From positions 1 through 64,000 of IMG/VR virus record IMGVR_UViG_3300045988_139474: a stretch of DNA of 64,000 nt; one strand, written 5' to 3'. This document shows positions 8,035 to 23,432 of the stretch, in pieces. Numbering within the stretch: the stretch's first letter is position 1; each line of letters starts with the position of its first letter. Made by a program: the position numbers and the translations under genes. The notes beneath the pieces were generated by a model. It worked only from the letters and a program-made list of their open reading frames with translations. It did no database searches and was not told the DNA's origin. The DNA is from a virus.

Positions 8035-8035
8035 G

Positions 8036-8395
8036 TTACCAAGAAACTCTGTCAACCACCCGGCCGTAATACTGAATTGTATCCCAATCAATTTCAAAGC
8101 CGTCTGCCTTCAGCCTTTTAGCTAATTGCGCTTGGTCGATTATTGAGGCGATGTAGATAGTGGCGGAGGCTGATCCCTTCTTGTAATGATGATATGAATG
8201 GTCTAAATAAACCAGCTCAGAGTGTGCTCCAGAATCTTCCCATCTCAAGTCCAAGTCAGATGCGCCTTTAGCAGCGATTTCTTGTATGATGCCTAGTAGT
8301 CTTTCATACATCTCATCTGGAGCGCGTTTCTGGAATTCAGCTGTAGCTTGTCGGGCAATATCTGCGGCTTTCGGCTCGGATTTAAATTTTATCAT
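8036..8395 (-). CDS. family A small protein (~115-aa paralog family)
   Basis: Family pattern ...MYERLLGIIQEIAAKGASDLDLRW...LAKRLKADGFEIDW...VVDRVSW. Confidence 0.75.
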   Translation of the reverse strand: MIKFKSEPKAADIARQATAEFQKRAPDEMYERLLGIIQEIAAKGASDLDLRWEDSGAHSELVYLDHSYHHYKKGSASATIYIASIIDQAQLAKRLKADGFEIDWDTIQYYGRVVDRVSW

Positions 8396-8405
8396 ACTAT
8401 TCCTC

Positions 8406-8663
8406 CTAATTGTCTAACAAATCTTCAGGCGACGTAACAAATATGCAAACCAGAGAATTTGAGCCTTCTACAAACTCAAACCAAATGATTGCGTTATAAT
8501 TACCATACTTTCGGTAAAACTCTGCGGAGTTTTTACACTCACGTGCCTTGTAGTCGTCATCATACCAGTTATACATCTCACGGGCACGGCTCATCATAGG
8601 ATAAACATGGTCGATATGATATATGCTACCGTTCAACATCTCCATGGCTTCTTCGCTTGTCAT
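8406..8663 (-). CDS. hypothetical protein
   Basis: Start moved to ATG 8663 (MTSEEAMEML), preceded by AAGGAAG and directly after the upstream stop. Confidence 0.6.
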   Translation of the reverse strand: MTSEEAMEMLNGSIYHIDHVYPMMSRAREMYNWYDDDYKARECKNSAEFYRKYGNYNAIIWFEFVEGSNSLVCIFVTSPEDLLDN

Positions 8664-8673
8664 AATAGCTTCC

Positions 8674-9024
8674 TTATTTATCCCACATGATATAGCCTGC
8701 GAGTTCACACGTATCCCCCCAGTAATCGACTGTGAAGCCTTCCTCGCTCAACCAGCGGCATATTTGGCTGAAATCGACTGTTCCGTGATCAATATACACT
8801 TTAGCGAGAAGGCCATGATAACGGATGCGTTTAGTAGTAACTTTTATTTCCTCGTTGTAGTCATTATCCCACCAAACTTGTAAACCAGCTGCACCTTGAC
8901 TTGAGAATTCTTCAATAATAGACTTAAAACGGTCTTGAATGCTCATGCCTTGTTCTGCAATAGCTTTCTTGTAACAAGATTTGGTACGCTCACCAAAGCT
9001 TAGATTCTCTTTTGAGCTTTCCAT
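8674..9024 (-). CDS. family A small protein
   Basis: Start moved to ATG 9024 (MESSKENL; SD AAGGAAA). Pattern ...FKSIIEEFSSQGAAGLQVWW...WLSEEGFTVDYW...GYIMWDK. Confidence 0.7.
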   Translation of the reverse strand: MESSKENLSFGERTKSCYKKAIAEQGMSIQDRFKSIIEEFSSQGAAGLQVWWDNDYNEEIKVTTKRIRYHGLLAKVYIDHGTVDFSQICRWLSEEGFTVDYWGDTCELAGYIMWDK

Positions 9025-9034
9025 ACGATTTCCT

Positions 9035-9505
9035 TTAGAATAAATGACGCTCCCAGACTTCAACATAGTCTTTGACTTCATCTTCACTCACGTCAGGCTC
9101 GAAAACGTCTGGATTGTCTCCCTTGAGGTTGTATTCCTGCAATAGATGTCCTAAACGGTAGAATCCGCCGTTGTAGGCCACGATTGTATCGTCTTGAAGA
9201 GGGGTCAAACCTCCACAATCTCGGAGCGTAACAGCGCGCAGTTCATGGTCTGATAGTGTGAGGCTGCCGCCCAACTGTTGAAGACTATGGAATATTAAAG
9301 CCAAAGTTTCATACAGTGTAGGGTTATCACCAAATTCTTCGCTTTCTAGCAGATAGGTGAATATCTCATCGGAGCTTTCGGCTTGATAGTCAATCCAGAG
9401 AAAATGCGGAGCAAAGCTAGCATAAGTTTTAGATTCCAAAGGGATATCAGACACTAGCAGATTGAGCTCACTCATGCGGGTATCGCCATTAGGGTGTGAG
9501 GTCAT
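9035..9505 (-). CDS. hypothetical acidic protein
   Basis: 156-aa ORF behind class I promoter 9545..9572. Confidence 0.7.
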   Translation of the reverse strand: MTSHPNGDTRMSELNLLVSDIPLESKTYASFAPHFLWIDYQAESSDEIFTYLLESEEFGDNPTLYETLALIFHSLQQLGGSLTLSDHELRAVTLRDCGGLTPLQDDTIVAYNGGFYRLGHLLQEYNLKGDNPDVFEPDVSEDEVKDYVEVWERHLF

Positions 9506-9544
9506 GATTTAAATTCCTGTTAGAAAGGATTGATTGCATGAGAA

Positions 9545-9572
9545 ATGTCTCACGAACCAATCCTAATTTCGT
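9545..9572 (-). promoter_or_regulatory. class I phage promoter motif (variant)
   Basis: GAAATTAGGATTGGTTCGTGAGACATTTCT, upstream of 9035..9505. Confidence 0.5.
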
Positions 9573-9584
9573 CAATTTTCGGCC

Positions 9585-10223
9585 TTATTCGCAAAGTGCG
9601 TAGCTGAAGATTCTAGCACGAGGGTCAAAAGAGATGACGTTGTTATTGCCTTGCACTTCGTTGTTTTGACCGACCAGAATGACGGTATTATCATTGCCGA
9701 CAATCGTGTTATTGTCGCCGATACAAATAATCAGGTTATCTCTGCTCTCTTTATCGGTCACAAGGCTTTGAGAATTACCGCCAAGAATGATAATGCTGTC
9801 TGAGCCATCTTGGAGTGTGGTATCGCTTTTATAGCCTTGTACGGAGGCCACGCAGCCCAAGCCGTTCAATTTTACTTTTTGTTCGTCCATCGGAAAGGTC
9901 ACGGAATCATAAGTCAGTAGCATGTGCTCCTCAGGCTCAGCGCAAAACTCGCTGCCCATTGCTAGGGTGTCAGCAATCTTGCGAATAGCTCGGAGTGCAG
10001 TTTCACGTTCTCCCTCATCTTCACAACGGAGCGTTTGAACGGCATACGCTTTGATGAATTCAGCGACTGCTGGAGCATTGACTTCTAAGAAGCCTCCCCA
10101 AGTCACCATATGAATGCTGACTGATTTTTCTTGGCCATAACGTTGAACGAACCATTCATGCAAGCCTTTAGACAAGCGACTTACAGCATCGGCATTGACT
10201 CGTACATTAGTTTCAAACTTCAT
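9585..10223 (-). CDS. hypothetical protein with C-terminal beta-helix-like repeats
   Basis: Start moved to ATG 10223 (MKFETN; SD GGAG). Tail IIILGGNSQ...ICIGDNNTIVGNDNTVILVGQNNEVQGNNNVISF. Confidence 0.7.
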   Translation of the reverse strand: MKFETNVRVNADAVSRLSKGLHEWFVQRYGQEKSVSIHMVTWGGFLEVNAPAVAEFIKAYAVQTLRCEDEGERETALRAIRKIADTLAMGSEFCAEPEEHMLLTYDSVTFPMDEQKVKLNGLGCVASVQGYKSDTTLQDGSDSIIILGGNSQSLVTDKESRDNLIICIGDNNTIVGNDNTVILVGQNNEVQGNNNVISFDPRARIFSYALCE

Positions 10224-10261
10224 GATTCTGACTCCAGATAGAAAGATTGGTTGTATATAAT

Positions 10262-10292
10262 GTATTATCTCAACGACCAATCTTTATTTTTA
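10262..10292 (-). promoter_or_regulatory. class I phage promoter motif
   Basis: TAAAAATAAAGATTGGTCGTTGAGATAATACA, upstream of 9585..10223. Confidence 0.6.
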
Positions 10293-10299
10293 CGCCGTC

Positions 10300-10656
10300 T
10301 TAAAAATAGATTGAGCCAATGACTCTAGCACGCTCGTATGGGTGTTTGTACCGCCCCAGCTCAAAGTACTCATCTGTAATCCAGCCGTTGATTGCGTTCA
10401 TGTCCAATACGTGCATGTTGTAAACGGTTACAAACATTGTATCGCAAGTTTGACGGTCAATGGTTAGCACTACTGGTTTAGCAGCCCATTCATCCTCGCC
10501 GTCATAGGCCTCTGCAACCCAATTGATAGCTAGCTCACGGCAGCCAGCTTTCTCAGCTTTCTCGACACATTCTTCTAGAATCTTGAATACCTCGTATGAG
10601 CGCGCACGTCTGCTTATTGCTACCGCCTTGCGCACAATTTCAATTGTTGAGTTCAT
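10300..10656 (-). CDS. family A small protein (divergent member)
   Basis: Start moved to ATG 10656 (MNSTIEIV). Pattern ...VFKILEECVEKAEKAGCRELAINW... Confidence 0.65.
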   Translation of the reverse strand: MNSTIEIVRKAVAISRRARSYEVFKILEECVEKAEKAGCRELAINWVAEAYDGEDEWAAKPVVLTIDRQTCDTMFVTVYNMHVLDMNAINGWITDEYFELGRYKHPYERARVIGSIYF

Positions 10657-10671
10657 GTTTATTCCTAGCAA

Positions 10672-11463
10672 TTAAGCCATGAAGGGCAGTTTGTCGGCCT
10701 TAACGAATCGACCGTCATATGTGCGACAGTACCAAGTATCAGGTTCAAATAGAGGGTTAAACAACGCACCCAAGCTTTCTTCCTTAGAACGCACCTCACG
10801 CCTAGTGCCGTCAATCAATCGGATTTCAGTACCAACGGAGGCTTTGAAGTACAAGCCCAAGTGAATATGATTCAGTCCAGTCATAGTCAAGACATTTCCT
10901 GCGCCCTCCACGCTAACTACACCGCCACGTGTGATGGTAATCTCGTTATCGTTTCCACTGACTTTGATAACACTAAAATCGCCGATAGAATCAATGCGGT
11001 TTCCGTCACCGCGTACAACGGCTAAAGCCTGCCAGATAGGATTGAGGGCGATACGATTTCGCATGCCTTTGCTAAACAGCATGTTTTGGGTGCCAGATAC
11101 GCTGATAAAGCCTTTTGCGCTGTCTTCAAAACAAACACTAGCAACAGCATCAGGGGCAAAATGCGTGTAATCGACTTGCCCTTCAGAAGAGTCAACACCG
11201 TCACCAATGGTGAAATGTCGTTTGAAGCCGTCTTCATCCCGCAACTCTTCTAGGGCTTTAAATACGCCCAGTGTTTGCATCCCATAGCCTTCTGTTACAA
11301 CCATGTTAGCTAATACGCCGAAAAGCTCGGAGCGCGCCATAGCAGATTGTGTCAGAATGTCGGTGAGCAGCTTGCGGGATTTGTCACCCAAGAGGGATTG
11401 CGATGTAAGGTCAGCAAGACCGTCAGGCAGAAGCTCATGAATTAAGCTTTTAGTAATGTCCAT
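10672..11463 (-). CDS. hypothetical protein with beta-helix-like repeats
   Basis: 263 aa. VVRGDGNRIDSIGDFSVIKVSGNDNEITITRGGVVSVEGAGNVLTMTG. Confidence 0.75.
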   Translation of the reverse strand: MDITKSLIHELLPDGLADLTSQSLLGDKSRKLLTDILTQSAMARSELFGVLANMVVTEGYGMQTLGVFKALEELRDEDGFKRHFTIGDGVDSSEGQVDYTHFAPDAVASVCFEDSAKGFISVSGTQNMLFSKGMRNRIALNPIWQALAVVRGDGNRIDSIGDFSVIKVSGNDNEITITRGGVVSVEGAGNVLTMTGLNHIHLGLYFKASVGTEIRLIDGTRREVRSKEESLGALFNPLFEPDTWYCRTYDGRFVKADKLPFMA

Positions 11464-11605
11464 GATAGTTCCTAGTGATATGTTTCTCTGACCGCCTGCT
11501 AGGTATCCCTACAAGCGGTCAGTTAATTGATGATTAATCCTCTGAGAAATACAGGCCGTTTTCAACGAAGTAGCTGTCGCTGAGTTCTTCATCCCAGACT
11601 TTATC

Positions 11606-11950
11606 CTAGTCAATACATTTGCGGAGATAATCAGGCAATACATTCAAAGCAACGTTTTCCAGTTCCTCGCAGATTTCTTGAGCAAATTCGGCCTTGTCGG
11701 AGTATTTGCCCCGATATGCGTCCATGGCTGTACCCAAGTCAAAGATGCCTGTAGCTTCAAAGTAAGCTTCCATGATTTTGCGTTCATCACTTGAGGCTTC
11801 TTCCCATTCTTGAAGCTCATCAAAATACTTCTCAATGCTCAGGCCTTCTGGGTAGTCATCGGCTTCTTCGATACCGCCTGCCTCTTCAATTTCTTCGTAG
11901 TTGCTGAATTCAAACAGGTAGCACCATTCGCCGTTTACTTTGATAGCCAT
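11606..11950 (-). CDS. acidic protein, possible ArdA-like antirestriction protein
   Basis: Start moved to ATG 11950 (MAIKVNGEW; SD AAGGAG). Very acidic. C-terminal AY..A.G......AMDAYRGKYSDKAEFAQEICEEL...LPDYL resembles the ArdA C-terminal region. Confidence 0.45.
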   Translation of the reverse strand: MAIKVNGEWCYLFEFSNYEEIEEAGGIEEADDYPEGLSIEKYFDELQEWEEASSDERKIMEAYFEATGIFDLGTAMDAYRGKYSDKAEFAQEICEELENVALNVLPDYLRKCID

Positions 11951-11989
11951 GTTATTACTCCTTCTTTCGGGTTTAGTTGGTTCATACTT

Positions 11990-12020
11990 GTATATCGCAT
12001 GCGCCAGATTTAATTTTCTA
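11990..12020 (-). promoter_or_regulatory. class I phage promoter motif (variant)
   Basis: GAAAATTAAATCTGGCGCATGCGATATACAAG, directly after terminator 12031..12067. Confidence 0.55.
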
Positions 12021-12030
12021 AAATTTTTAG

Positions 12031-12067
12031 CAAAAATAAAACCTCCCAATCGAAAAGACTGGGAGGC
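12031..12067 (-). terminator. rho-independent terminator
   Basis: CCTCCCA-GTCTTTTCGAT-TGGGAGG followed by TTTTATTTTTG, after 12094..12294. Confidence 0.75.
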
Positions 12068-12093
12068 ATTCACGGTCAAGGTCGGTTGCGGTC

Positions 12094-12294
12094 TTACGCT
12101 TCCTTATCCGATTGATAATTCATCCATGTAACAACTAGTAGCAAGGCAATCATGAAAAGCAATAGCATGATTAGCAAACTTAACTCTAAAGCCGTGGACC
12201 AGGGCACGAAGCCGTTGATATTGGAATACATGTAGATGATACTACTTGTAAGCAACACCGCAGTGATAAAGCCCGATATTCCGCTGAAACTCAT
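12094..12294 (-). CDS. small membrane protein
   Basis: 66 aa with two hydrophobic helices. 4-nt overlap with the upstream gene; terminator directly downstream. Confidence 0.55.
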   Translation of the reverse strand: MSFSGISGFITAVLLTSSIIYMYSNINGFVPWSTALELSLLIMLLLFMIALLLVVTWMNYQSDKEA

Positions 12295-12746
12295 TGATTG
12301 CCTCTCATTTGAGATAAGACTACAACGGCTCTAGCAAGTGCCTCTTCCAAAGAAAGGTCATTCTTTGAAGCCTCACCGACAGGCTTGACGTCAGTTGAGG
12401 GTAGCTCTTCAAGCGGTTTGGTCGGAATTACCTTGACTTCAACCTCACCTGCTTCTGTTCCATTAGGCCAGAAAAACAGCGTGCTACTTATGGGGTCAAA
12501 TGTATAGTATGAACGGCCTTCTTTAAGGTCGTATTTTTGGTGTTTGTTCCAAGTCTTCAAGAAACGCTTATCGCTACTCAAAAGCCCAACCAAGATTGAC
12601 GGGTCTTTTTCGGCTACAGCACGACATAGTCGGCATAAGGCTTCTTCAGCACGCTCACCGCGTTTCTTCATCTTCTTCAGCTTTGCGAGTTCCTCAGGCC
12701 GAATATCAACATAGTCAATTGCAGGTAAATCTACAGTACAAGGCAT
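12291..12746 (-). CDS. hypothetical protein (family D motif KD.SIL..LLS.D..FL..W)
   Basis: AVAEKDPSILVGLLSSDKRFLKTWNKHQ is shared with 12760..13587 and 15327..15935. Confidence 0.7.
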   Translation of the reverse strand: MPCTVDLPAIDYVDIRPEELAKLKKMKKRGERAEEALCRLCRAVAEKDPSILVGLLSSDKRFLKTWNKHQKYDLKEGRSYYTFDPISSTLFFWPNGTEAGEVEVKVIPTKPLEELPSTDVKPVGEASKNDLSLEEALARAVVVLSQMRGNQ

Positions 12747-12759
12747 GATTATTGCTCCT

Positions 12760-13587
12760 TTACATATTAAAACATGACGGGTCAGGTGTAGCCTTAGACG
12801 GCATGTCTGATGGCTCTGTCTTGCTTACCAAGTCTAAAATCTCGGTCAAGAATCGGTAGAACGCGTCACCCTTGCCCTCTCGTTTGACGAAAGTGCGGCT
12901 GGTTGTATCCTTGCTTGAGTCAGCGAAGTAGTCAATATAAAACCAAGATTCACCATCTAGCTCGAAAGGCTTGCTGACTACTTTGATTGTATCAATCAAT
13001 ACGCCCTCCAACTTCGACACGATAGTTTCAACGTCTGCGGAGGCCGTCTGGATTCCGTCTTGTTTCGGTTTCTTAGCTTTCGTCTCGGTTGCTGCTTGTA
13101 AAGCCTTATCAACTTGAGTTTGGGATGAGTTGAAAGTTACAAGCTTTCCGTTTACCTTATCAAACAGGCTGTAAAGCTCCTTTCGTTGACAATTTTGTTT
13201 CTGTACTTCCTCCCAGAGTTCCAAGAAATACGAATCTTTGCTGAGGATTTCGACCAAGATTGTCTTATCTTTCTTAAACAGGATATGGCTGATAAGTTGT
13301 ACCGTGTTGAAAGCTCGCTGAACTTTTGGCTCGGTTACAAGCGTTGCTGCTTGTTTCTGACGGAGGCCAAGATTGACGCGGTCAATGACTTGCTTAGCTA
13401 TTCTACCGTTGCTGCGCTTGGGGCTAAAGTGGATGATGAATGGTCGTCCTTGTCTATTGAATCGGATAGTCGTGGCGTCATAGTCAAAAATGCTATTGAA
13501 GGGTACATGGACTGTTCTGCCGTCAGCCATCGGTACAACCAAAGAATAGCCGTCAGCTGAGGTGTAGGGTGCAAAAGCTTGAGTCAC
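12760..13587 (-). CDS. hypothetical protein (family E module plus family D motif)
   Basis: ISHILFKKDKTILVEILSKDSYFLELWEEVQKQN parallels ISDVLFEKDKSILIKLLSEDAHFLKIWREIQNRN in 15327..15935. Confidence 0.75.
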   Translation of the reverse strand: MTQAFAPYTSADGYSLVVPMADGRTVHVPFNSIFDYDATTIRFNRQGRPFIIHFSPKRSNGRIAKQVIDRVNLGLRQKQAATLVTEPKVQRAFNTVQLISHILFKKDKTILVEILSKDSYFLELWEEVQKQNCQRKELYSLFDKVNGKLVTFNSSQTQVDKALQAATETKAKKPKQDGIQTASADVETIVSKLEGVLIDTIKVVSKPFELDGESWFYIDYFADSSKDTTSRTFVKREGKGDAFYRFLTEILDLVSKTEPSDMPSKATPDPSCFNM

Positions 13588-13604
13588 AGGGATTCTTCCT
13601 TTCT

Positions 13605-14144
13605 TTAGATTGTAGCACTTGTAGGCTGAGTCGGAGCAAGAATTTGAGTTGTTGCTAGCATTTGGTTAATGCTCTCTTCAGTCGCTCGCACCCAATCATT
13701 ACCAGTATCAGGGAAAGCGTGAGTCAATTCGTTCAGTCCAGTTGAGTGTAAAACAACGTACTGGTCATGAATGCGCAGGCGGTTTCGGACAGCAGGTATA
13801 GCAATCTCAGCGCAAGCTTTCAACGGCTTACCACTAACAACGCCCAATACAATGACTGGGTTATCCCCAAGGGATTTCACGGCTTGACCGTTGCGCACTA
13901 GATTGATTGCATCTTCAGCACCAAAGGCTCGGTTGGCCAGTTCTTCATAAGCTACTTGAGCTTGATACGCAAATTCAAGGAGGGCAAAGGCTTCCTGACC
14001 GATTTTGCAGGATTTGAGGAAGCTATCAACGCAGTTTTCGGCTTGAAAAGTTGTAAGCGTGTCTTTGAATTCATGACGGCCATCAATATGCTTTGAGACT
14101 TGCTCGGCGAATTGTTGCCAGTTGTAATCGGCTTTGATATTCAT
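13605..14144 (-). CDS. hypothetical protein, paralog of 14162..14665
   Basis: NWQQFAEQVSKHIDG... versus LWNQFASKVEDYIDA.... Identical RBS context AAAGGAAGAATCCCTATGAA. Confidence 0.75.
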   Translation of the reverse strand: MNIKADYNWQQFAEQVSKHIDGRHEFKDTLTTFQAENCVDSFLKSCKIGQEAFALLEFAYQAQVAYEELANRAFGAEDAINLVRNGQAVKSLGDNPVIVLGVVSGKPLKACAEIAIPAVRNRLRIHDQYVVLHSTGLNELTHAFPDTGNDWVRATEESINQMLATTQILAPTQPTSATI

Positions 14145-14161
14145 AGGGATTCTTCCTTTCT

Positions 14162-14665
14162 TTAGGCTTCTGGTTTCTGTTCTAAGGCTTTGCGGATTTC
14201 TTCGTTGCTAGCAAGTCTCCATTCGCAGTACAGCTCAGGAAAGTTTTTGCGTACAGCAATCTGACCGTTTGGTAGGATAGTCAGATAATGCTTCTTGATA
14301 TCAGACATAGGTACACCGCCAGCAACGCTGTAATTAGCGTTGAGGAAGCCTGTCAATTGATCGCCACTAATCTCAGTCAGTACAAATAGAGGGTTAGCTT
14401 CAGAAGATATGCGGACGGCTCGACCTGCTTGTACGTGTTTGTAAGCAGTAGCGCGGTCAAAGAACGCTGCGTCATAAGCAATCTGGGCCAGTTGAGCCAG
14501 TCTCAAGAGTTGTTGAGAGGCTTCAGGGACTGGTAAGTTAGCCAGATTGTGGATTTCTTTCACACACTGGTCTAAGGTCATTAATTCGACAGTCGGAGGT
14601 TGCGCGTCAATGTAATCTTCGACTTTAGAAGCAAATTGATTCCAGAGTTTCGTTGAGAGTTTCAT
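14162..14665 (-). CDS. hypothetical protein, paralog of 13605..14144
   Basis: Start moved to ATG 14665 (MKLSTKLWNQF). ATGA overlap with the stop of 14662..14844. Confidence 0.75.
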   Translation of the reverse strand: MKLSTKLWNQFASKVEDYIDAQPPTVELMTLDQCVKEIHNLANLPVPEASQQLLRLAQLAQIAYDAAFFDRATAYKHVQAGRAVRISSEANPLFVLTEISGDQLTGFLNANYSVAGGVPMSDIKKHYLTILPNGQIAVRKNFPELYCEWRLASNEEIRKALEQKPEA

Positions 14666-14844
14666 AGGGATTCTTCCTTTCTGTATAGGCTCTTGAATCG
14701 AGGGTCTAGGCGCAATTGTTGTTCGATACGCTTGCGGTGTTCCTCTTGCGTCCATTTTCGCTTGCGCTCACTAGTCTTAGGGAGCCTGCGTGTTTCTCGT
14801 AGCATGTTTTGTCGGGTGTTCTGTTGTTTTGAATCATAGTTCAT
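14662..14844 (-). CDS. small highly basic protein
   Basis: 60 aa, Arg/Lys/Gln-rich. SD GAGGA upstream; stop overlaps the next start (ATGA). Confidence 0.5.
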   Translation of the reverse strand: MNYDSKQQNTRQNMLRETRRLPKTSERKRKWTQEEHRKRIEQQLRLDPRFKSLYRKEESL

Positions 14845-14892
14845 CAGTCTGAATCCTCAGGTTATGTTTGGTCGTCTAAATTTTCGCTCAGT

Positions 14893-15213
14893 TTACTCCC
14901 AACGAATAATATCAATACAGTCTCCGAATACCGTATGATAACACATCTCAACCTCGAAGCCGTCCTCACGTAAGCGGTCAACTACTGCTTGAACGTCAAA
15001 TTGCGTATCTACATTAATGTTTACAAAGATAAGTGAGCCAGTTCGGCGTAACAGGTCGGTATTTGTAACAGCTACTGTAGGCATGTCCAGCCCTGCAGAC
15101 CGCGTAAAGTCTAAACCTTTTGCGCCTAAGCTTGATGCCTCCTTAACAGCTTCGATAATGCCAACATAAACATCTTCTGTTAAGTTAGCTGGGGTCAGAT
15201 TTACTTTGTTCAT
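14893..15213 (-). CDS. family A small protein
   Basis: Start moved to ATG 15213 (MNKVNL; SD AGGAG). ...IIEAVKEASSLGAKGLDF...VVDRLREDGFEVEM...CIDIIRWE. Confidence 0.7.
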   Translation of the reverse strand: MNKVNLTPANLTEDVYVGIIEAVKEASSLGAKGLDFTRSAGLDMPTVAVTNTDLLRRTGSLIFVNINVDTQFDVQAVVDRLREDGFEVEMCYHTVFGDCIDIIRWE

Positions 15214-15249
15214 TTTGTTACTCCTGAAAGGTATTGTTTGGTTATACTT

Positions 15250-15280
15250 GTAAATCTCACTAGCCAATCTTAATTTTTAG
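15250..15280 (-). promoter_or_regulatory. class I phage promoter motif
   Basis: TAAAAATTAAGATTGGCTAGTGAGATTTACAAG, directly after terminator 15282..15316. Confidence 0.6.
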
Positions 15281-15281
15281 C

Positions 15282-15316: not shown

Positions 15317-15326
15317 CGTCTGGGAG

Positions 15327-15935: not shown

Positions 15936-15945
15936 AGATGTCTCC

Positions 15946-16215: not shown

Positions 16216-16231
16216 TTCAATTGCCCTATGA

Positions 16232-16849
16232 TTAATTGATCAATTTGTTGCGAAACTCGTCAAAGCCGTCAAACAAGACTTCTTTGATAGCCGTGCAGAC
16301 TTCTTGGCTTAGGCCTTCTGATTCTCGAATCTCAGGGACAATCACGGCAGGCACACCCTTTTCTTGAGAGGCGTTATACATCCAAGCGCAAACGTCCATT
16401 AATTCTTGGTCGACAGGGATATCATCCAAGTACAAGACAATATCGCCTGAGGCCAATTCTTTGCTACGCATCCAGCCAGCTGATTGGGCGAATCGGGTTG
16501 AGCCGTCTCCTGCAGTATTTCGCAAGCCGTCCACAACGTTCAATTCCAGAATGTCTGAGAAAAACGCCTTGTCTTCATCGCTCATATGGCGTCTGCCTAA
16601 GCTTGAGTACCAAGAAGAGATGATTACAACTTCGACATCCTTAATCATTCGGCGGTTCTTGATATCGTCAATCAGCGAATGAAGATTGCTCAAGAGGTCT
16701 CGTGAGATGATGTCGCCACGATTGCGTGAAGCAACTTTGAATTCTTGCTCAATTGCTTTGGTGTCCTTTGCGTCATACAAATCGCAATAGCGGTTGAACG
16801 CCTTGCGATTATTTAAGACACCATCAATATCCAGAAATACAACTAACAT
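16232..16849 (-). CDS. HAD-superfamily phosphatase-like protein
   Basis: N-terminal HAD motif I: MLVVFLDIDGVLNN (DxDGV). Confidence 0.75.
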   Translation of the reverse strand: MLVVFLDIDGVLNNRKAFNRYCDLYDAKDTKAIEQEFKVASRNRGDIISRDLLSNLHSLIDDIKNRRMIKDVEVVIISSWYSSLGRRHMSDEDKAFFSDILELNVVDGLRNTAGDGSTRFAQSAGWMRSKELASGDIVLYLDDIPVDQELMDVCAWMYNASQEKGVPAVIVPEIRESEGLSQEVCTAIKEVLFDGFDEFRNKLIN

Positions 16850-16892
16850 AATGATTCCTTACCCTTACTTTTCAGACATTTCACAGGTTCAA

Positions 16893-17477
16893 TTAGCATA
16901 TCCCTGTCGTCCATTCATGCACACCAGGGTTAAAGATTCTATCAAAGTCAGCGTTAAGGCTTATGCCTTTGCCGTTCAGGTGCGTGACGAAGATTGTTGG
17001 CAGTATTGGAAGCCCTCGAAATAAGAAGTCAACAACGTGTAGTCTTTCATACTTATCTACATATCCGCCGTCCAGAATAACCGCACGGCCTTGAGTATCA
17101 GGCTCATCTAAGTAGTATTCTGCAACCCATTCAATAGCTTTCTCAAAGCGTACAAGGCTATTGTTCGGCTCGTAGATGACGTCAGCATAGTCACACTCAC
17201 GCGCTTTGAGCAGGGCTTGAGTCGCTTCAATAACTCGTTCAGGGTCATGCGGTTCACTACTGCTCGGCATTACTACTAGCTTGGGGCGTAGTTCAAAAAC
17301 AGTCACGAAGTGTCGGAATATCTTGAAGACATCATCCAGAAGCGTCAGCGATATTGGTTTATCAGACAGCTCAGGAATCAGCTTGTAATCATCCAATTCG
17401 ACTTCGCCATTATCTACCTTATTACAAAATATCGGGTCGTTGAGTACTCCGTCTATCCCTAAGAATAGCATTAGCAT
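16893..17477 (-). CDS. HAD-like paralog lacking the nucleophile Asp
   Basis: Start moved to ATG 17477 (MLMLFLGIDGVLND; SD AGGAGG). Motif I reads GIDGV instead of DIDGV. Confidence 0.7.
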   Translation of the reverse strand: MLMLFLGIDGVLNDPIFCNKVDNGEVELDDYKLIPELSDKPISLTLLDDVFKIFRHFVTVFELRPKLVVMPSSSEPHDPERVIEATQALLKARECDYADVIYEPNNSLVRFEKAIEWVAEYYLDEPDTQGRAVILDGGYVDKYERLHVVDFLFRGLPILPTIFVTHLNGKGISLNADFDRIFNPGVHEWTTGIC

Positions 17478-17487
17478 TTCAGGCCTC

Positions 17488-17940
17488 CTACAAATAGCGA
17501 GAACCGACAACAGCGAAGCTATCTGGCGATTTAATTTCAGCATACCAAACACGGTGTCCATAGTAACCGTTATGGTGGTTGTAAACCGCAAAGTTCAAAT
17601 CGCCTTTGTCAGTCTCTACATCGAAGAACATACAGTCATCAATATCAATACCAGTACCAATGCCGTCATCTCCAATCCAGTCAATAAACTCCTTATTGCC
17701 TGAGCTTTCGACAAAGCTGATATTGCGCACTTCAGCACCAATATAGTCGTTGAAGTCTGTATCTTCTTGCCAGCTGATATAGCCGTATGACTCACAGCAT
17801 TGCTGACCGTCTTTGATACCGAAAAAGCTGGCTGTCCCATCTTCGTATTCAATCAACACACCGTCATACCAGCTGAAGCGGTCTGAGCCTGGGATATGGT
17901 AATGGTCTTTATGGGCGATTGCTTTGATAATTCGTTTCAT
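17488..17940 (-). CDS. hypothetical protein
   Basis: Start moved to ATG 17940 (MKRIIKAI; SD AGGAAG). Contains QQCCESYGY and HHNGYYGH. Confidence 0.7.
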   Translation of the reverse strand: MKRIIKAIAHKDHYHIPGSDRFSWYDGVLIEYEDGTASFFGIKDGQQCCESYGYISWQEDTDFNDYIGAEVRNISFVESSGNKEFIDWIGDDGIGTGIDIDDCMFFDVETDKGDLNFAVYNHHNGYYGHRVWYAEIKSPDSFAVVGSRYL

Positions 17941-17950
17941 GCTTCTTCCT

Positions 17951-18250
17951 TTACATGTAAGGGTCACGGCGATACAGGTTATAGCCCAATCTACTACAGG
18001 CGTGCTTTACAATATCATAAGAGGATTCCAAGATGAATTCACTCAATTCAAAACCTGAGCCGACAATGTATTCATCTTCTTTCTTACCGTACATCTGTTT
18101 GCTTAACGGTTTCTTCCATTCCCAGTAGAAGCCGTCAGTATCAACTCGTACAAGCCCTTTAGTTTGAAGCTCATAGACAAGGTGTTCTAGTGTATCGCCC
18201 CTAGCTGCTATGTCTCCATCACGGTTCAGTAGTACCAATTTAGTCTGCAT
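17951..18250 (-). CDS. hypothetical protein
   Basis: 99-aa ORF, tightly packed on the coding strand. Confidence 0.65.
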   Translation of the reverse strand: MQTKLVLLNRDGDIAARGDTLEHLVYELQTKGLVRVDTDGFYWEWKKPLSKQMYGKKEDEYIVGSGFELSEFILESSYDIVKHACSRLGYNLYRRDPYM

Positions 18251-18265
18251 GCTATAATCCTCGAA

Positions 18266-18703
18266 TTAGCCGTAAATCTGTTTGAGTACTTCTTCTGGCT
18301 GGGCTTCTGTATAGAAATGTTCGTCAGCCTCACCTGCTTTGCGGTAGGTGATTTCGCACTCTTGCCGCCCAGAATCAAAGCACCAAATCTGGATGCCGCT
18401 GATGTCGCAAACCTTAAACTTATGGTGCAACGGATAGCTAGGGATACAGGGATGAGGTTTACCTTGCAACTCAATCTCGGTTGAATTCAGCCCAAGCGGT
18501 TTGAACTGACCACCTACACCTAAGTGCGCGTCAATAGCTCGCTTCAACTCAAGCAGTTTGTCTCGGTCTAACCTGGTCACCTCACAACCTGAGTCAGATT
18601 TCACCTGGAAGTAGACAGAATTGAAATTGTCGGTAAATACGGACAGCAGTGAATCGTCATTGCTAGATGAGTCATCAAATAGCAGGTCTTTGATTTCGTT
18701 CAT
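18266..18703 (-). CDS. hypothetical protein
   Basis: Start moved to ATG 18703 (MNEIKDLL), 1 nt after the upstream stop. Confidence 0.7.
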   Translation of the reverse strand: MNEIKDLLFDDSSSNDDSLLSVFTDNFNSVYFQVKSDSGCEVTRLDRDKLLELKRAIDAHLGVGGQFKPLGLNSTEIELQGKPHPCIPSYPLHHKFKVCDISGIQIWCFDSGRQECEITYRKAGEADEHFYTEAQPEEVLKQIYG

Positions 18704-18704
18704 G

Positions 18705-19310
18705 TCAAATGTCCTTATAATCCCAGAATTCAATACACACTTTGTAGGTCTTAACAAAATTCTTCAGGCCTTCTTCGGAGTTGTAGTACAGGGATTTTTC
18801 TAAATCACCATACACTTTACCGTATTCTGGATGAGTCGCTTCAAATTCGTTAATCCAAGAAAATCCCGATTCATCGTTGATATCTGCGCGCAAAGTCCAG
18901 CCAGTTTGAAAGCGGTCACTCAAGCACATAGGATTCAAAGTGATTGCCGGACTCGTGCCGTATTCCCATTCTTTACCTAGTTCAAATCTCTTCAAGAAGT
19001 CTTTGCTGGAAATGCTAAATTCTGGCTCCGCCGATTGTTCAAAAAGGTCATCTGGCTCAGGAATCTTCCAGCTAACAATCATATCAACGCTATGGCTGTT
19101 AGCATCAGGTTCAGACAATATCACGTCATATTCGCAGCTTTCCAGATACAGCTTGAGTGGTTCGACGTATGGAGCCGCAACCCCATTCAGGATAGTTGAG
19201 TCTTCACCCGTCAAAGCCGCACTAGTCAATTCTGCTTTGACGCCTTCAATTACACCTGGCTCGTTCTTGACGAAAGCAGCCATTTCTCTCAAATCGTGAG
19301 CATTAATCAT
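18705..19310 (-). CDS. hypothetical protein carrying the family C domain
   Basis: C-terminal ~105 aa (PEFSISSKDFLKRFELGKEW...IEFWDYKDI) match the C-terminal half of 20073..20726. Confidence 0.75.
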   Translation of the reverse strand: MINAHDLREMAAFVKNEPGVIEGVKAELTSAALTGEDSTILNGVAAPYVEPLKLYLESCEYDVILSEPDANSHSVDMIVSWKIPEPDDLFEQSAEPEFSISSKDFLKRFELGKEWEYGTSPAITLNPMCLSDRFQTGWTLRADINDESGFSWINEFEATHPEYGKVYGDLEKSLYYNSEEGLKNFVKTYKVCIEFWDYKDI

Positions 19311-19365
19311 TCTTGTTTCCTTTGCTATTAGACGGCTGAGACAATCTTCAGCCGTCTCAAATTCT

Positions 19366-19677
19366 TTATGGGCGTTCGATTACATACAGGAATGCGATGT
19401 AGTATTCGTCATCCACAGCAATCGTTTTGCGTTTGTCTGCGTCATTCCATAATTCGCGGTAGTATTCCGCAGGAAAGATACACCACCCAGCTTCATCAAA
19501 TCGGCCTAATCTTTTCTCAACGACTGCAGTCATGTCTGCGATACTCAAGAAATTTTGACCGCTCAATTCTTCTACAATCTGGTGATGATTGCTATCGTCA
19601 GTCGCTGCAACCAAAACATAGTTGTCGATTTTAGGCATGATTACATCTGGCTGGTCGTTGTTAGTTTCGGGTTTCAT
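19366..19677 (-). CDS. family B small protein (~90-aa paralog family)
   Basis: Start moved to ATG 19677. YVLVAATDD...FLSIADMTAVVEKRLGRFDEAGWCIFPAEYYRELWN. Confidence 0.7.
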   Translation of the reverse strand: MKPETNNDQPDVIMPKIDNYVLVAATDDSNHHQIVEELSGQNFLSIADMTAVVEKRLGRFDEAGWCIFPAEYYRELWNDADKRKTIAVDDEYYIAFLYVIERP

Positions 19678-19678
19678 T

Positions 19679-19966
19679 TTATGCTGCCTCTCCAATAACA
19701 GGCTCTTCGCCGATATACATGTAAGTTGCTACGCTGTATTCGTGACCCCATTTGTGGCCTGCACGGTCTAATTCATCGTAGCGGTCAACAGGGTAAATAT
19801 CCCAAGTGTTTTCTTTAAATCTGCCCAAAACTTCTTTTACTTTCTCACGCATTTCTTCCATGTCTTTAAACCACAAACCGCCCAGTTGTTCTGTAGGGAT
19901 GATGGTTTTGAGTTCGTCAGAAGTTGCTACTACAACGAAAGTTTCATATTTAGCTTCAGAGTTCAT
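19679..19966 (-). CDS. family B small protein
   Basis: FVVVATSDE...FKDMEEMREKVKEVLGRFKENTWDIYPVDRYDEL. Confidence 0.7.
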   Translation of the reverse strand: MNSEAKYETFVVVATSDELKTIIPTEQLGGLWFKDMEEMREKVKEVLGRFKENTWDIYPVDRYDELDRAGHKWGHEYSVATYMYIGEEPVIGEAA

Positions 19967-20001
19967 TTTAGTTCCTTTTAGACTATCGGTTGTTCATACT
20001 T

Positions 20002-20030
20002 GTATATTGCATTCGCCAAATTTAATTTTC
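20002..20030 (-). promoter_or_regulatory. class I phage promoter motif (variant)
   Basis: GAAAATTAAATTTGGCGAATGCAATATACA, upstream of 19679..19966. Confidence 0.55.
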
Positions 20031-20072
20031 TAAATTTGGCGATTTATTAGCGTTCCACGTACAACCAAGTAG

Positions 20073-20726
20073 TTACAGGTCACCATAATCCCAAAATTCA
20101 ATACCGCTTCCAAAGGTATCCGCAAAACGTTTCAAGGCTTTCTCGGAGGTGTAGTACAGGGTCTTTTCTAAATCGCCACGCACTTTGCCGTATTTTGGAT
20201 GCTTAGCTAGAAAATCGCTAATCCAAGAAATACCAGCTTCTTCGATGACATCGGCATATAAAGTCCAGCCAGATTTTGAATTATATCCCCAGCAGTCAGG
20301 GTCTAAAGTGATTGCGGCACAAGGTGTACGCACCCAGCCTTCGGCCAGATTAAACTTCTTCAAGAAGTCTTCACCTGAAATCGAAAACTCAGGCTGTTTC
20401 GATTGAGAGGTCTCAGGGATTTCCTCGTGCTGAGGTGTATCAACGCTATGACTGTTAGCATCCACGTACATCCAAGTAGTTTGACGGTGGCCGTATTCTT
20501 TCAGGATTTCGGCTTTCTCTTCTTTCGTCATTTCTTTGTAACGTTCATTCGGCATAATCACCCATTGCGTTGAACGATAGAAACCTAACAGTTCCACGAC
20601 TTTTTCGTTCATTTCTGCAACACTCTTGAAACGCAGGCCAGCTAAGTCAACCACAGGGTTGAGATGTCGCATAACATTAGAAGCAGCTACGATTACATAT
20701 TCATCTTCACGGATTTCAGGTTTCAT
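20073..20726 (-). CDS. fusion of a family B module and the family C domain
   Basis: N-terminus YVIVAASN...FKSVAEMNEKVVELLGFYRSTQWVIMPNERYKEM. C-terminus PEFSISGEDFLKKFNLAEGW...IEFWDYGDL. Confidence 0.75.
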   Translation of the reverse strand: MKPEIREDEYVIVAASNVMRHLNPVVDLAGLRFKSVAEMNEKVVELLGFYRSTQWVIMPNERYKEMTKEEKAEILKEYGHRQTTWMYVDANSHSVDTPQHEEIPETSQSKQPEFSISGEDFLKKFNLAEGWVRTPCAAITLDPDCWGYNSKSGWTLYADVIEEAGISWISDFLAKHPKYGKVRGDLEKTLYYTSEKALKRFADTFGSGIEFWDYGDL

Positions 20727-20808: not shown

Positions 20809-21060
20809 TTACGGTGCACCAATCTCAAGAATGGCTGCATATGAAATATTTGGGTCAAATGCTGTACCGTCCCAGCCTGTACTATCATTCCAACGGCGGC
20901 AGAAGGCCGAAAGCTCTAACAACTCCCAATAGTCGTGCCCTAAGGTCTCTGCTACAACTTTATCGGCCGTATTTACGTCAGGATATTGATGAGAAGCCAA
21001 TTGGTCCATAACATACTCGCTTGTATCGCCTTCAGCGTCAGCAATCAAAATATATTTCAT
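20809..21060 (-). CDS. family B small protein
   Basis: MKYILIADAEGD...YPDVNTADKVVAETLGHDYWELLELSAFCRRWND. Confidence 0.7.
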   Translation of the reverse strand: MKYILIADAEGDTSEYVMDQLASHQYPDVNTADKVVAETLGHDYWELLELSAFCRRWNDSTGWDGTAFDPNISYAAILEIGAP

Positions 21061-21074
21061 GAGAATTTCTCCTT

Positions 21075-21329
21075 TTAGCTCTCGGATTCCTGCGTCTCAA
21101 TGACTACAGCATAAGTTGTGGTTGTATCGATAGTCATATCCAGCCAGTCAATCCCATTCCAGCGTTCGCAAAGCTCTTCAGGCGTAAACAGCTCCCAGTC
21201 AGAATCGCCCATGGCTTCTTCAATCGCTTCGCTGGCTGTTTGAATGCTAGGATATTTTACAGCGGAAAGCTGCTTCATCTTGTAAAAACGGTCATCACCG
21301 ATTGCTTCCGCAATCAAAATATGTTTCAT
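21075..21329 (-). CDS. family B small protein
   Basis: MKHILIAEAIGD...YPSIQTASEAIEEAMGDSDWELFTPEELCERWNG. Confidence 0.7.
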   Translation of the reverse strand: MKHILIAEAIGDDRFYKMKQLSAVKYPSIQTASEAIEEAMGDSDWELFTPEELCERWNGIDWLDMTIDTTTTYAVVIETQESES

Positions 21330-21706
21330 GAGAGTCTTCCTTCTTTTTCTTCAACCCAGATGATAGCGTCAATAACATCAATACCCTCATCTACCATTCG
21401 TATCCACAAGACAGTTAGCTTTTCTTTCTCCAAGCGTTCAGCCAGATTGTCCCAGTCAATCCAGTGTCCGATATTGACACAAACTTCGGCCAAACCGTCG
21501 ACAAGGTCACCAGGATTTATGAAAGTGGCATAGCCCTCACTAGCATCTTCAGCCTCAAACAAACTCAAGCCTCTAGCTCCGAATGCAGCTGCTTCTGTAA
21601 TACGCTCAACAATATCCTCGTACACGGCATCATTTATCTTAGCCTTAAAGCCTTGCAGAGCTTCACGCGCTACATCGCCAACGGCTTTGTGGGTTTCTTG
21701 TTCCAT
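21326..21706 (-). CDS. family A small protein
   Basis: ...VYEDIVERITEAAAFGARGLSLF...LAERLEKEKLTV...VIDAIIW. ATGA overlap with the next gene. Confidence 0.7.
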   Translation of the reverse strand: MEQETHKAVGDVAREALQGFKAKINDAVYEDIVERITEAAAFGARGLSLFEAEDASEGYATFINPGDLVDGLAEVCVNIGHWIDWDNLAERLEKEKLTVLWIRMVDEGIDVIDAIIWVEEKEGRLS

Positions 21707-21993
21707 TATTTACCTTTCCATTTCTTACGTTTCACTTTCAAGATTGCGAGATATGATGCTTGCGGGCTGATAAGTGATTTATCGCCGACAGCTGAATCAT
21801 TCCATAACTGTCGGAAAGCCTTAGCAGTGAATAGTTTGTAATAGCCAAACTCATTCGGATGGCCTAAAACTCGCTCAATCTCTGCCTTCATTTCAATCTT
21901 ATCAGGATAGCGTTTTGAAGACAGTTCATTCAAGACTTCCTCCGTCTTTTGCCCTACAACGCTCGGAGAAGCCACCAACATGTATGTAGCCAT
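21706..21993 (-). CDS. family B small protein
   Basis: MATYMLVASPS...YPDKIEMKAEIERVLGHPNEFGYYKLFTAKAFRQLWND. Confidence 0.7.
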   Translation of the reverse strand: MATYMLVASPSVVGQKTEEVLNELSSKRYPDKIEMKAEIERVLGHPNEFGYYKLFTAKAFRQLWNDSAVGDKSLISPQASYLAILKVKRKKWKGK

Positions 21994-22008
21994 GATATTT
22001 CCTCCTAT

Positions 22009-22350
22009 TTAGCTCCAGTCAATATGCTTGATTACCCAGTATAAATCGGGATGGTCGCCAATTCTGAGACTGCCGAATGAAGTTTTCATTAGGCGGTCAA
22101 ATATCGTGTCATGGTTGTACGCACGGCTATTGTAGATTTTCACCCTCATGACACTACCTTCAGGCCCACTACAAACCAAAACAGTATCTTCAGGATGTCT
22201 AGCAATCGTCCAGTCCAATTCTATCTTACAGCAACCATTATCCTTAGCTCGCTCAATCGCAGCCGTTAATGCTTCCCATAGTTCGTCTGTCTCTCGCTCC
22301 TCAATCCGTCTAAAGGCCGCAAGAATATCGCTAGGTCTAGCACTTTTCAT
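22009..22350 (-). CDS. family A small protein
   Basis: ...RRIEERETDELWEALTAAIERAKDNGCCKIELDW...VIKHIDWS. Confidence 0.7.
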   Translation of the reverse strand: MKSARPSDILAAFRRIEERETDELWEALTAAIERAKDNGCCKIELDWTIARHPEDTVLVCSGPEGSVMRVKIYNSRAYNHDTIFDRLMKTSFGSLRIGDHPDLYWVIKHIDWS

Positions 22351-22706
22351 TCAGGCTCTCCCCAAAGGATGTAATTGACGACTAAGCCTAATGATGGATG
22401 GTTGATACCTTCCAAAAGGAATCCGTCATCTTTCAAGCGTTGTTCCAACACGTCTCGGTTGATACTATGCGCGTTGTAAATCTTTGCTAGATATGTATAG
22501 GCTTCTGGCGGTTCAGTCGTATCTAAGATAATATCGCCCTCATGCCGTACAATCCGCCATTCCAAGTGCATGCGAGTACAGCATTTATCAGCGGCAAGCT
22601 TAATAGTTGAGGCCAGGTATCGGTACAATTCGTCTGTTTCGCGTTCCTTCGCACGATTGAGGATAGCACGGACATCTGCAGCTAATGGTGTTTGAGTATC
22701 AGTCAT
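22347..22706 (-). CDS. family A small protein
   Basis: Start moved to ATG 22706 (MTDTQTPL). ...NRAKERETDELYRYLASTIKLAADKCCTRMHLEW...LKDDGFLLEG...VVNYILW. Confidence 0.7.
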   Translation of the reverse strand: MTDTQTPLAADVRAILNRAKERETDELYRYLASTIKLAADKCCTRMHLEWRIVRHEGDIILDTTEPPEAYTYLAKIYNAHSINRDVLEQRLKDDGFLLEGINHPSLGLVVNYILWGEPE

Positions 22707-22710
22707 AATG

Positions 22711-23085
22711 CTATTGCTCCCGCCAAGAGATTGTTGAAACGACTTGACCGACCAAGTCTGCGTATTCGTGGAAAGTAAGCTCAAAGCCCTCTGCTTCTAA
22801 ACGCTTTGCCAGTTCAAGGCTATCGAAGCGGTTTGAGTCATAGATGATTACAAATTGCACACTCCCCACGCGGTTTCCGTCCTTATCGAGGATTGCACCC
22901 TTATCGGCGTGATGCGGACTAACCAGCCAAGTAAGATGCACGGTATGGCAACAGCGTTTAGCTGCCTCACGAATAACGTCAAGCAAGAGGTTATACAGCT
23001 TGTCCGTCTCTTTCTCACGTGCTTGCTTCAAGATTTTCAGTACCTGTTTTGCTTCAGGGATAAAGGATACTTGAGTGCCGGCCAT
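22711..23085 (-). CDS. family A small protein
   Basis: Start moved to ATG 23085 (MAGTQ; TAATG overlap). ...KQAREKETDKLYNLLLDVIREAAKRCCHTVHLTW...LEAEGFELTF...VVSTISW. Confidence 0.7.
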   Translation of the reverse strand: MAGTQVSFIPEAKQVLKILKQAREKETDKLYNLLLDVIREAAKRCCHTVHLTWLVSPHHADKGAILDKDGNRVGSVQFVIIYDSNRFDSLELAKRLEAEGFELTFHEYADLVGQVVSTISWREQ

Positions 23086-23432
23086 TATTTTGTCTCCCAA
23101 GAGATAACATCAATCACACGGCCTAAGCTAGAATGGTCATAGCAGCTAACGTTGAAACCGCCGTTCTCAAACCAGTTAATGAGGTCAGAGTGAGTAACCA
23201 GGTGTGAGCCGCAAACGTCAATTCGCATTTCACCGTTTTCAATCTTGCTATACTCTACATGAGGTACAGGGCTATTAAGGCCACCCCAATACACACTCAA
23301 TACTTTCAAGCCTCTGTTTGCGGCGTCAACGACATAGGCCATCAAAGTTTCGCAAACGTCTTGTGTATCTCGGTCTTGAGCTTTCTTCAGGATTTCACGG
23401 GCTTGTTCAGCAGTTACAGGGTTGAATTTCAT
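23085..23432 (-). CDS. family A small protein
   Basis: ...KKAQDRDTQDVCETLMAYVVDAANRGLKVLSVYW...FENGGFNVSC...VIDVISW. Two tandem class I promoters lie upstream. Confidence 0.75.
   Translation of the reverse strand: MKFNPVTAEQAREILKKAQDRDTQDVCETLMAYVVDAANRGLKVLSVYWGGLNSPVPHVEYSKIENGEMRIDVCGSHLVTHSDLINWFENGGFNVSCYDHSSLGRVIDVISWETK

Follow-up and report, generated by a model that had tools for sequence, protein, structure and literature searches.

Several described systems bear on the locus considered here. Takeover and anti-defence clusters of phages bring together mostly unrelated genes; examples are anti-CRISPR loci, the host-takeover module of Bacillus phage SPO1 and the small early genes of T4 and T5. 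In large eukaryotic DNA viruses, multigene families such as MGF110, MGF360 and MGF505 of African swine fever virus (ASFV), the host-range families of poxviruses and the so-called genomic accordions vary in copy number with the strain. Immunity-gene arrays of contact-dependent inhibition (CDI) and Rhs systems are typically tandem, diverged small paralogues built on a conserved scaffold. Amplification of anti-defence loci has been reported in phage T6 (PMC13096335). Here we analyze a stretch of 64,000 nucleotides (nt), hereafter the window, which corresponds to positions 1 to 64,000 of IMG/VR virus record IMGVR_UViG_3300045988_139474. Its source is an uncultivated phage of ~150 kb, in which accessory genes surround nine genes encoding related proteins of ~115 amino acids (aa). 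These nine genes constitute a lineage-restricted multigene family evolving by gene birth and death, a descriptive class, and the function of their products is weighed below.

The members, named m1 to m9 by rising window coordinate, are all on the minus strand, which carries nearly all transcription across the window. Five are dispersed: m1 (8036-8395, 119 aa), m2 (8674-9024, 116 aa), m3 (10300-10656, 118 aa), m4 (14893-15213, 106 aa) and m5 (21326-21706, 126 aa). The other four form a tandem array headed by m9 (23085-23432, 115 aa), followed by m8 (22711-23085, 124 aa) and m7 (22347-22706, 119 aa), and ended by m6 (22009-22350, 113 aa). All nine open reading frames (ORFs), first named in a sequence-only reading of the window, are intact, and a Shine-Dalgarno sequence of AGGA/GGAG type stands 5-10 nt ahead of the ATG of each. 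Independent public gene calls agree in length for m2 (P0003, identical to it; other homologues at 74-84%), m3 (P0004) and m4 (P0005), give 119 aa for the m1 orthologue P0001, and also match in length for the orthologues of several further members. Orthologues reach 85-97% identity for m4 (P0005, P0006 and P0013), 61-73% for m7 and 65-76% for m9; for m6, P0002 is 99% identical and the copy in L001, a ~142-kb relative of the window phage, 61%, while the L001 orthologue of m8 is 67% identical.

Identity between paralogues is 12-36%. An all-against-all phmmer comparison takes in all nine members as a single network. Hidden Markov models (HMMs) built from eight members and run against the 631 six-frame ORFs of the window always ranked the omitted member next after the eight training sequences, with E-values ranging from 1.4e-8 for m2 to 4.6e-22 for m7 (m1, 1.5e-20; m3, 1.6e-13; m4, 1e-12; m5, 3.2e-13; m6, 2.3e-16; m8, 9.9e-22; m9, 2.2e-16). 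The full HMM found no tenth copy among these ORFs, none of the others scoring at E<50. Profile-profile comparison, the challenge to homology that had been set beforehand, was run with hhalign between disjoint subgroups and returned probabilities of 96.8-99.5%: the array subgroup matched the dispersed subgroup at 99.5% (E 3e-23), and the m3 subgroup matched each of the two other subgroups at 98.9% (E 1.5e-17) and 96.8% (E 2.6e-10), with alignments spanning nearly the full length of the proteins. The shared consensus motifs listed in the sequence-only reading were seen again in two family alignments. Its central claim stands: the nine ORFs are real genes and true homologues, similar far beyond chance. 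That reading also called nine copies exceptional. This is indeed the largest paralogue family of the window, but it is not alone, given that a second family of eight members is interleaved with it and that paralogue families hold 29 of the 106 window genes, concentrated at 3.6-27 kb.

The family is an orphan and very rare. Scans of Pfam-A, PHROGs v4, NCBIfam and PADLOC with 9 or 35 sequences gave scattered single-member matches, each at E>=0.0025, and no curated family was matched by more than one of the sequences scanned. Nothing was significant in PADLOC, where the best result was a single-member HicA-like match (E 0.04); none of the members matched the Imm, SUKH or CdiI families of Pfam, and none of the nine matched the ArdA profile. 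The profile search of databases that the sequence-only reading had proposed was carried out with HMMER over the full set of 1.84 billion representative proteins. It yielded 38 matches, of which ~33 are genuine, all of them short and unannotated, and led to no named family. Two large repetitive proteins among the matches, P0032 and P0039, were judged spurious. Word-indexed searches of 5.8 billion clusters gave 15-16 matches, all from metagenomic contigs; the few with a source label were assigned to Caudoviricetes or Herelleviridae. At their longest, these contigs measured 142-154 kb. Repeating the word-indexed search with a 35-sequence profile gained nothing. Among 50,697 deposited phage genomes, tblastn with m1 and m8 found no match at E<=1, nor did megablast of the region find any among deposited phages.

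An AlphaFold model of m1, computed from a 35-sequence alignment, has a predicted local distance difference test score (pLDDT) of 90.6 and a predicted template modelling score of 0.79, and a model of m8 (pLDDT 79.9) agrees with it. In the m1 model, the chain opens with a 32-residue N-terminal helix and strand beta1, continues through a variable excursion containing short strands to strand beta2, and closes with a second helix and a hairpin of beta3 and beta4; the beta1-beta2 excursion ranges from 18 to 28 residues across members. Alignment columns with entropy below 1.4 bits are hydrophobic or glycine without exception, and would represent the scaffold. Semi-conserved polar positions are limited to D87, R94, D/E98 and H107 (m1 numbering), around the helix2-beta3 turn. 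Since the family alignment contains no invariant polar residue, the family carries no catalytic signature. Direct reading of the nine sequences revealed no hydrophobic N-terminus resembling a signal peptide and no membrane-type segment. The products appear to be small (106-126 aa), soluble, cytoplasmic and non-enzymatic alpha/beta proteins, with isoelectric points (pI) of 4.3-6.2. The family profile found at best a helix-only match among PDB sequences (E 0.024), and Foldseek comparison of the m1 and m8 models with the PDB gave only matches with E>0.2 and template modelling (TM) scores below 0.4. Against BFVD, the m8 model had its best match in an uncharacterized protein (E 5e-3), the others being weak and to small uncharacterized phage proteins. 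As modelled, the fold is compact, has no detectable relatives and is new to the libraries searched.

The last four genes had been described as linked by start-stop overlaps. Overlaps are found at m9/m8 (TAATG, where the m9 stop overlaps the m8 start) and at m7/m6 (ATGA), but m8 and m7 are separated by a 4-nt spacer (TAG, CATT, ATG). At all three junctions, the codons of the conserved C-terminal Trp-x-Glu of the upstream copy (TGGGAG and variants) double as the ribosome-binding site for the copy that follows, and the array members appear to be translationally coupled. The coupled chain runs past m6 through an unrelated ~90-aa gene of the interleaved family, termed X, into m5 and further; m5 is flanked on both sides by X genes, with TAATG and ATGA junctions.

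An intergenic motif of ~45 nt, AAAAATTAAGATTGG-N4-TGAGATAT-ACA-GTAT..., occurs in ~20 copies window-wide, located 20-40 nt upstream of the ribosome-binding site and ATG. Matches to it number 24 against 4.4 expected, and 23 of the 24 are on the coding strand. Copies end at about positions 3591, 8030, 9569, 10289, 12016, 15276, 20028, 20788, 23496, 23564, 25354, 26349, 28469, 30549, 35272, 51627, 52009, 52463, 59039, 60686 and 63444. The spacing of the motif is at odds with a canonical sigma-70 promoter, and it probably represents a phage promoter class. If it is taken as a promoter, the nine genes form four units, all on the minus strand. Two tandem copies directly upstream of m9 (AAAATTAAGATTGG...TGAGATAAT..., 23453-23565, repeat family D1) would drive m9, m8, m7, m6, X, m5, X and X, in this order. 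A terminator-like hairpin (15290-15317) and a motif copy (15233-15277), together spanning 15233-15317, stand upstream of m4, which comes first behind its own motif, and of the genes after it. Another terminator-like hairpin (12041-12067) with a motif copy (11943-12067 together; D3 and D13) heads a unit made of an ArdA-like gene, a gene for a 263-aa protein and, third, m3. Lastly, a motif copy at 9545-9569 (D4) heads the genes for a 156-aa protein, m2, a 100-aa protein and m1. The two hairpins are near-identical (GCCTCC-AGTC-TTTT-GATT-GGAGG followed by a T-run), the motif comes immediately downstream of each, and they look like the boundaries of terminator-promoter cassettes.

Copy number differs among relatives. 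Against nine members in the window, L013 has eight, including a contiguous array of six, L015 has seven and a split remnant, L001 has six and L010 about four. The window, L001, L013 and L015 all keep the order m9-m8-m7-m6, although their amino-acid sequences differ by 33-39%; in L001, an m9-like gene precedes the orthologues of m8, m7 and m6. In L010, an m2-like copy is frameshifted, two neighbouring members are fused into a two-domain ORF of 224 aa, and P0007 is a chimera in which ~30 initial codons from the m8 orthologue run into the m6 orthologue, m7 being deleted; the fusion is known from a single contig at 8x coverage. L001 lacks the 12.5 kb that bear m1-m4 (window 7766-20328), and L002, near-identical to the window, lacks 2,066 bp (18580-20645). 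The piece missing from L002 ends in or near paralogous genes, and the repeat D2 lies at 18746-18907 and 20114-20275. Finally, the relative L003, near-identical by blastn, overlaps the right end of the window with 93-99% nucleotide identity and carries two extra adjacent members at its positions 10001-10806, ~1.5-2.3 kb beyond the position corresponding to window 64000, adjoining a HATPase_c gene and upstream of rIIB. The whole genome of the window phage probably holds at least 11 members, two of them just past the window end. A Tad2-like gene (anti-Thoeris family) is located ~5 kb beyond the two extra members of L003.

The family also extends beyond these relatives. L011 is an unrelated phage, with a portal of the SU10 type and a PolA that shows no detectable similarity to that of the window phage; it contains two clear members in tandem and a third, weak one. 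Homologues of six accessory genes or families of the window are found there in all, namely the X family, the ArdA-like gene and four others, which points to a shared and exchangeable accessory gene pool. The family has been transferred between phage lineages. What characterizes birth-and-death evolution was thus found: a variable region, copy-number differences, pseudogenes and fusions among close relatives, and purifying selection.

Array orthologues are only 61-67% identical between the window and L001, whereas the ligase, YadA-like, actin-like and 225-aa proteins are 90-96% identical. Likewise, nonsynonymous divergence (dN) is 0.26-0.28 for the array orthologues versus 0.02-0.07 for core genes, the amino-acid change of the former being 4-10 times the core-gene rate. 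Their ratio of nonsynonymous to synonymous divergence (dN/dS) is 0.09-0.18, with dS saturated for the array genes, and these low ratios show that the retained copies are functional. Overall selection on the family is purifying. The family accounts for 6 synonymous and 4 nonsynonymous substitutions between the window and L002, and neighbouring genes account for 52 and 41, respectively, numbers too small to reveal selection. On dN/dS and variability mapping, which the sequence-only reading had proposed, the orthologues change fast, under purifying selection overall and with variability that is not localized.

The window further encodes an NAD-dependent ligase, a YadA-like adhesin, a beta-prime-like RNA polymerase subunit, PolA, a helicase, a primase-like protein, enzymes resembling thymidylate synthase and thymidylate kinase, an exonuclease and rIIB, and the family shares its strand block with the RNA polymerase, PolA, helicase and primase genes. 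Among cultured phages, the nearest PolA comes from Ralstonia phage RP13 (34.5% identity), and a search of 185,579 species genomes found no PolA relative. RP13 has been placed in a proposed group of phages of ~150 kb whose thymidine is hypermodified (PMC12686479); 34.5% PolA identity is too distant to place the window phage in that group. The clade of large phages to which the window phage belongs is uncultivated, and RP13 and YerA41 are its distant relatives.

Among the neighbours of the family, the ArdA-like gene (11606-11950, minus strand) is co-oriented with m3 and apparently belongs to one transcription unit with it. ArdA is the sole Pfam match for two of the three ArdA-like homologues, at 20-25 bits, below the 27-bit threshold, and recurs in one of the two homologues from other contigs; the assignment is only suggestive. 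A longer ORF of 157 aa (11606-12079) is acidic, with a net charge of -16. A Pfam scan of 30 neighbouring proteins returned only HAD_SAK_2, DUF7448, weak ArdA and weak beta-roll matches, with no gene bearing a toxin domain, and one neighbouring gene has a weak PHROG match to 'toxin of TA system' (E 1.2e-4). The interleaved X family comprises eight members sharing a ~90-aa domain, all on the minus strand (18705-19310, 19366-19695, 19679-19966, 20073-20726, 20809-21060, 21075-21329, 21706-21993 and 23831-24112), with two longer copies having a common C-terminal domain. No match to X was found in Pfam (for the members scanned) or in PHROGs (for the one member scanned). Homology between X and the 115-aa family was considered and rejected (hhalign probability 0.2%).

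What could such proteins do? We tentatively favour, at somewhat less than even confidence, the view that they are non-enzymatic binders, individually dispensable, which modulate or inhibit host proteins and possibly defence systems. The sequence-only reading had proposed a diversified binder or inhibitor family rather than a housekeeping function. That proposal is partly supported, as it agrees with conservation confined to the scaffold, variable copy number, fast-changing orthologues, a segment present or absent among relatives and sharing with an unrelated phage; small accessory genes that vary between related phages and are exchanged horizontally are also a trait of anti-defence loci. As we picture it, a phage-specific promoter-like motif would drive the family along with the replication and nucleotide-metabolism block, and translation of the array would be coupled, the TGGGAG codons of one copy acting as the Shine-Dalgarno sequence of the next. 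The predicted scaffold of two helices and four main beta-strands would be held by its hydrophobic core, leaving other positions and the beta1-beta2 loop free to vary. Each paralogue could then bind a different host protein stoichiometrically and block or redirect it, the targets being components of defence systems or of the processes taken over by the phage. As hosts vary, duplication, deletion and fusion would reshuffle the repertoire, as would exchange between phages infecting the same cell. A more specific and rather doubtful version would make this previously unseen fold a diversifiable inhibitor scaffold, with paralogues directed against different defence components or alleles, and a repertoire traded between phages of the same host; the family would then be the counterpart, among phages, of the multigene host-range families known from large eukaryotic DNA viruses.

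Several observations weigh against the binder reading. Library scans of the members showed no similarity to known defence families or characterized anti-defence proteins, and no helix-turn-helix (HTH) regulator of the Aca type was found among the 30 neighbouring proteins scanned. The comparison of the window with L002 gave no nonsynonymous excess in the family, and differences between orthologues are spread along the whole protein, favouring no single surface. Considering that dS is saturated, the divergence of the array may also stem from recombination with distant alleles and not from fast evolution. Moreover, conserved array order, coupled expression and a two-domain fusion would be equally expected if the proteins were parts of a single complex.

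This last point leads to the main rival, which we hold to be unlikely: the paralogues, or at least the four to six array members, would not be independent inhibitors but would assemble into one hetero-oligomer of the phage, such as an accessory factor for its own RNA polymerase, replisome or DNA-modification machinery. Array order maintained in four phages is what such an assembly would predict, as is the location of the family within the RNA polymerase, PolA, helicase and primase strand block; the start-stop overlaps and in-gene Shine-Dalgarno sequences suggest coupled translation and possibly matched amounts of the products, and the 224-aa fusion of adjacent members in L010 provides a 'Rosetta-stone' hint, albeit one that depends on a single contig at 8x coverage. 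A fixed assembly is hard to reconcile, however, with the loss of m7 and of most of m8 in L010, where another copy is frameshifted, with a range of ~4 to at least 9 copies among close relatives, with the dispersal of five members among unrelated genes, and with the mere 2-3 copies of an unrelated phage that has a different polymerase. The members could also be immunity- or antitoxin-like proteins neutralizing the toxins of host abortive infection, of contact-dependent systems or of competing phages. We regard this as quite improbable: the resemblance of these diverged tandem paralogues to CDI and Rhs immunity arrays, their soluble and mildly acidic character and the weak toxin match of one neighbour speak for it, but the absence of immunity-family matches among the members, the insignificant PADLOC result and the lack of toxin-domain genes among the neighbours scanned speak against it.

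Still less probable is a role as DNA or nucleic-acid mimics, or as nucleic-acid binders, acting on restriction or other DNA-targeting enzymes in the manner of Ocr or ArdA. Two members, m5 (the most acidic, pI 4.30, net charge -16) and m4 (pI 4.45), are strongly acidic, an ArdA-like gene lies within the same region, and R3H and KH domains are among the weak top Foldseek matches in the PDB. Yet m4 and m5 are the only members with a pI below 4.5, the other seven having a pI of 5.0-6.2 and a net charge of only -2 to -6; those Foldseek matches are all non-significant, and the nine proteins all lack the net positive charge that one might look for in a nucleic-acid binder. Functionless or near-neutral ORFan duplicates, kept by drift in a recombination-prone region, would account for the copies lost, fused or frameshifted in relatives and for the failure to recognize any known function. 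This explanation seems to us the least credible of all, considering the low dN/dS of the orthologues, the survival of the fold-defining core down to 12% identity, the intact Shine-Dalgarno sequence and ATG of every copy, and the retention of the family in two unrelated phage lineages.

Other features of the window were recorded besides the family. The YadA-like trimeric autotransporter adhesin (5360-6697, minus strand) is complete, with head repeats, stalk and membrane anchor, and sits inside the replication-region block; it is 90% identical in L001, 30-42% identical to proteobacterial plasmid genes and without match in E. coli. Paralogue groups of two or three genes occur at 3644-4480, at 4482-5285 with 15946-16215, at 12291-13587 with 15327-15935, at 13605-14755, at 16232-17591 and at 26483-27189, and include a HAD_SAK_2-like pair recognized by eye. 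Adjoining m1 and m3, three minus-strand genes (6745-7671, 9585-10280 and 10672-11463) encode proteins with short Gly/Asn/Val-rich repeats and a beta-helix or beta-roll look; they have weak matches to DUF3060 and an antifreeze beta-roll, and their kinship was seen by eye, phmmer giving none at E<1e-3. An actin-like gene (296-1246, minus strand), assigned to ALP_N / MreB-like_C in Pfam through its 96%-identical L001 orthologue, may encode a segregation or cytoskeleton element. The beta-prime-like RNA polymerase subunit (31228-34236, minus strand) has 1002 aa in the window and 1147 aa in L001 and L010; the longer genes have an Intein_splicing match in L010, which is faint in L001, and weak to faint PT-HINT matches, and an intein appears to be present or absent among relatives. 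Finally, a repeat of ~135-180 nt with the core TTATCCACGAAATATACGATTTCAATGTCATAGATGTGATAC is dispersed in five copies, two in one orientation (54578-54811 and 54982-55173) and three in the other (59156-59338, 61033-61215 and 61411-61593), mostly in gaps between larger ORFs. Its predicted structure is weak, and Rfam gave no match.

Should the paralogues prove to be specific inhibitors, a single genome would provide 9-11 naturally diversified variants of one new scaffold, on which target specificity could be mapped to sequence, and new mechanisms of anti-defence or takeover could emerge from this phage clade. If, on the other hand, they work together as a single complex, these phages would possess an accessory machine that is new to science. 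The family is in any case a clear phage example of multigene birth and death, in which the array has expanded, copies have fused, recombined into a chimera or decayed to pseudogenes, and members have moved between lineages.

How does the locus compare with described systems? It resembles phage takeover and anti-defence clusters in its small genes without enzymatic signature, its dense packing behind repeated promoter-like motifs, a region that varies between close relatives, exchange between unrelated phages and a nearby ArdA-like gene. It differs from them in that one fold recurs in 9-11 ancient paralogues, and from anti-defence loci in lacking both an Aca-type HTH regulator among the neighbours scanned and any member matching a characterized anti-defence protein; inhibition would be a presumptive activity here. 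ArdA and Ocr are likewise small, acidic, encoded by phages or mobile elements and probably stoichiometric, and m3 apparently shares its transcription unit with an ArdA-like gene; nevertheless, no sequence or fold similarity connects them to the family, most members of which are only mildly acidic. With orphan immunity arrays (CDI, Rhs, Imm/SUKH) the family has in common small diverged paralogues, a conserved scaffold and variable surfaces, but it has no adjacent toxin module or immunity-family match, and its setting is a phage replication-region operon. Unlike a recent amplification of the T6 type, the duplications are old, since the array already had its order before the window phage and L001 diverged. 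The ASFV and poxvirus families and genomic accordions offer a close parallel, with paralogues both in tandem and dispersed in a variable genome region, strain-dependent copy number, and fusions, deletions and pseudogenes that indicate birth and death, although the fold is unrelated and a host-range or immunity role is only presumed for the phage family. In the libraries searched, neither the protein family nor its predicted fold has a precedent, the phenomenon of a variable accessory block and of a viral multigene family is already recognized, and what sets this locus apart is the size and the age of its paralogue set.

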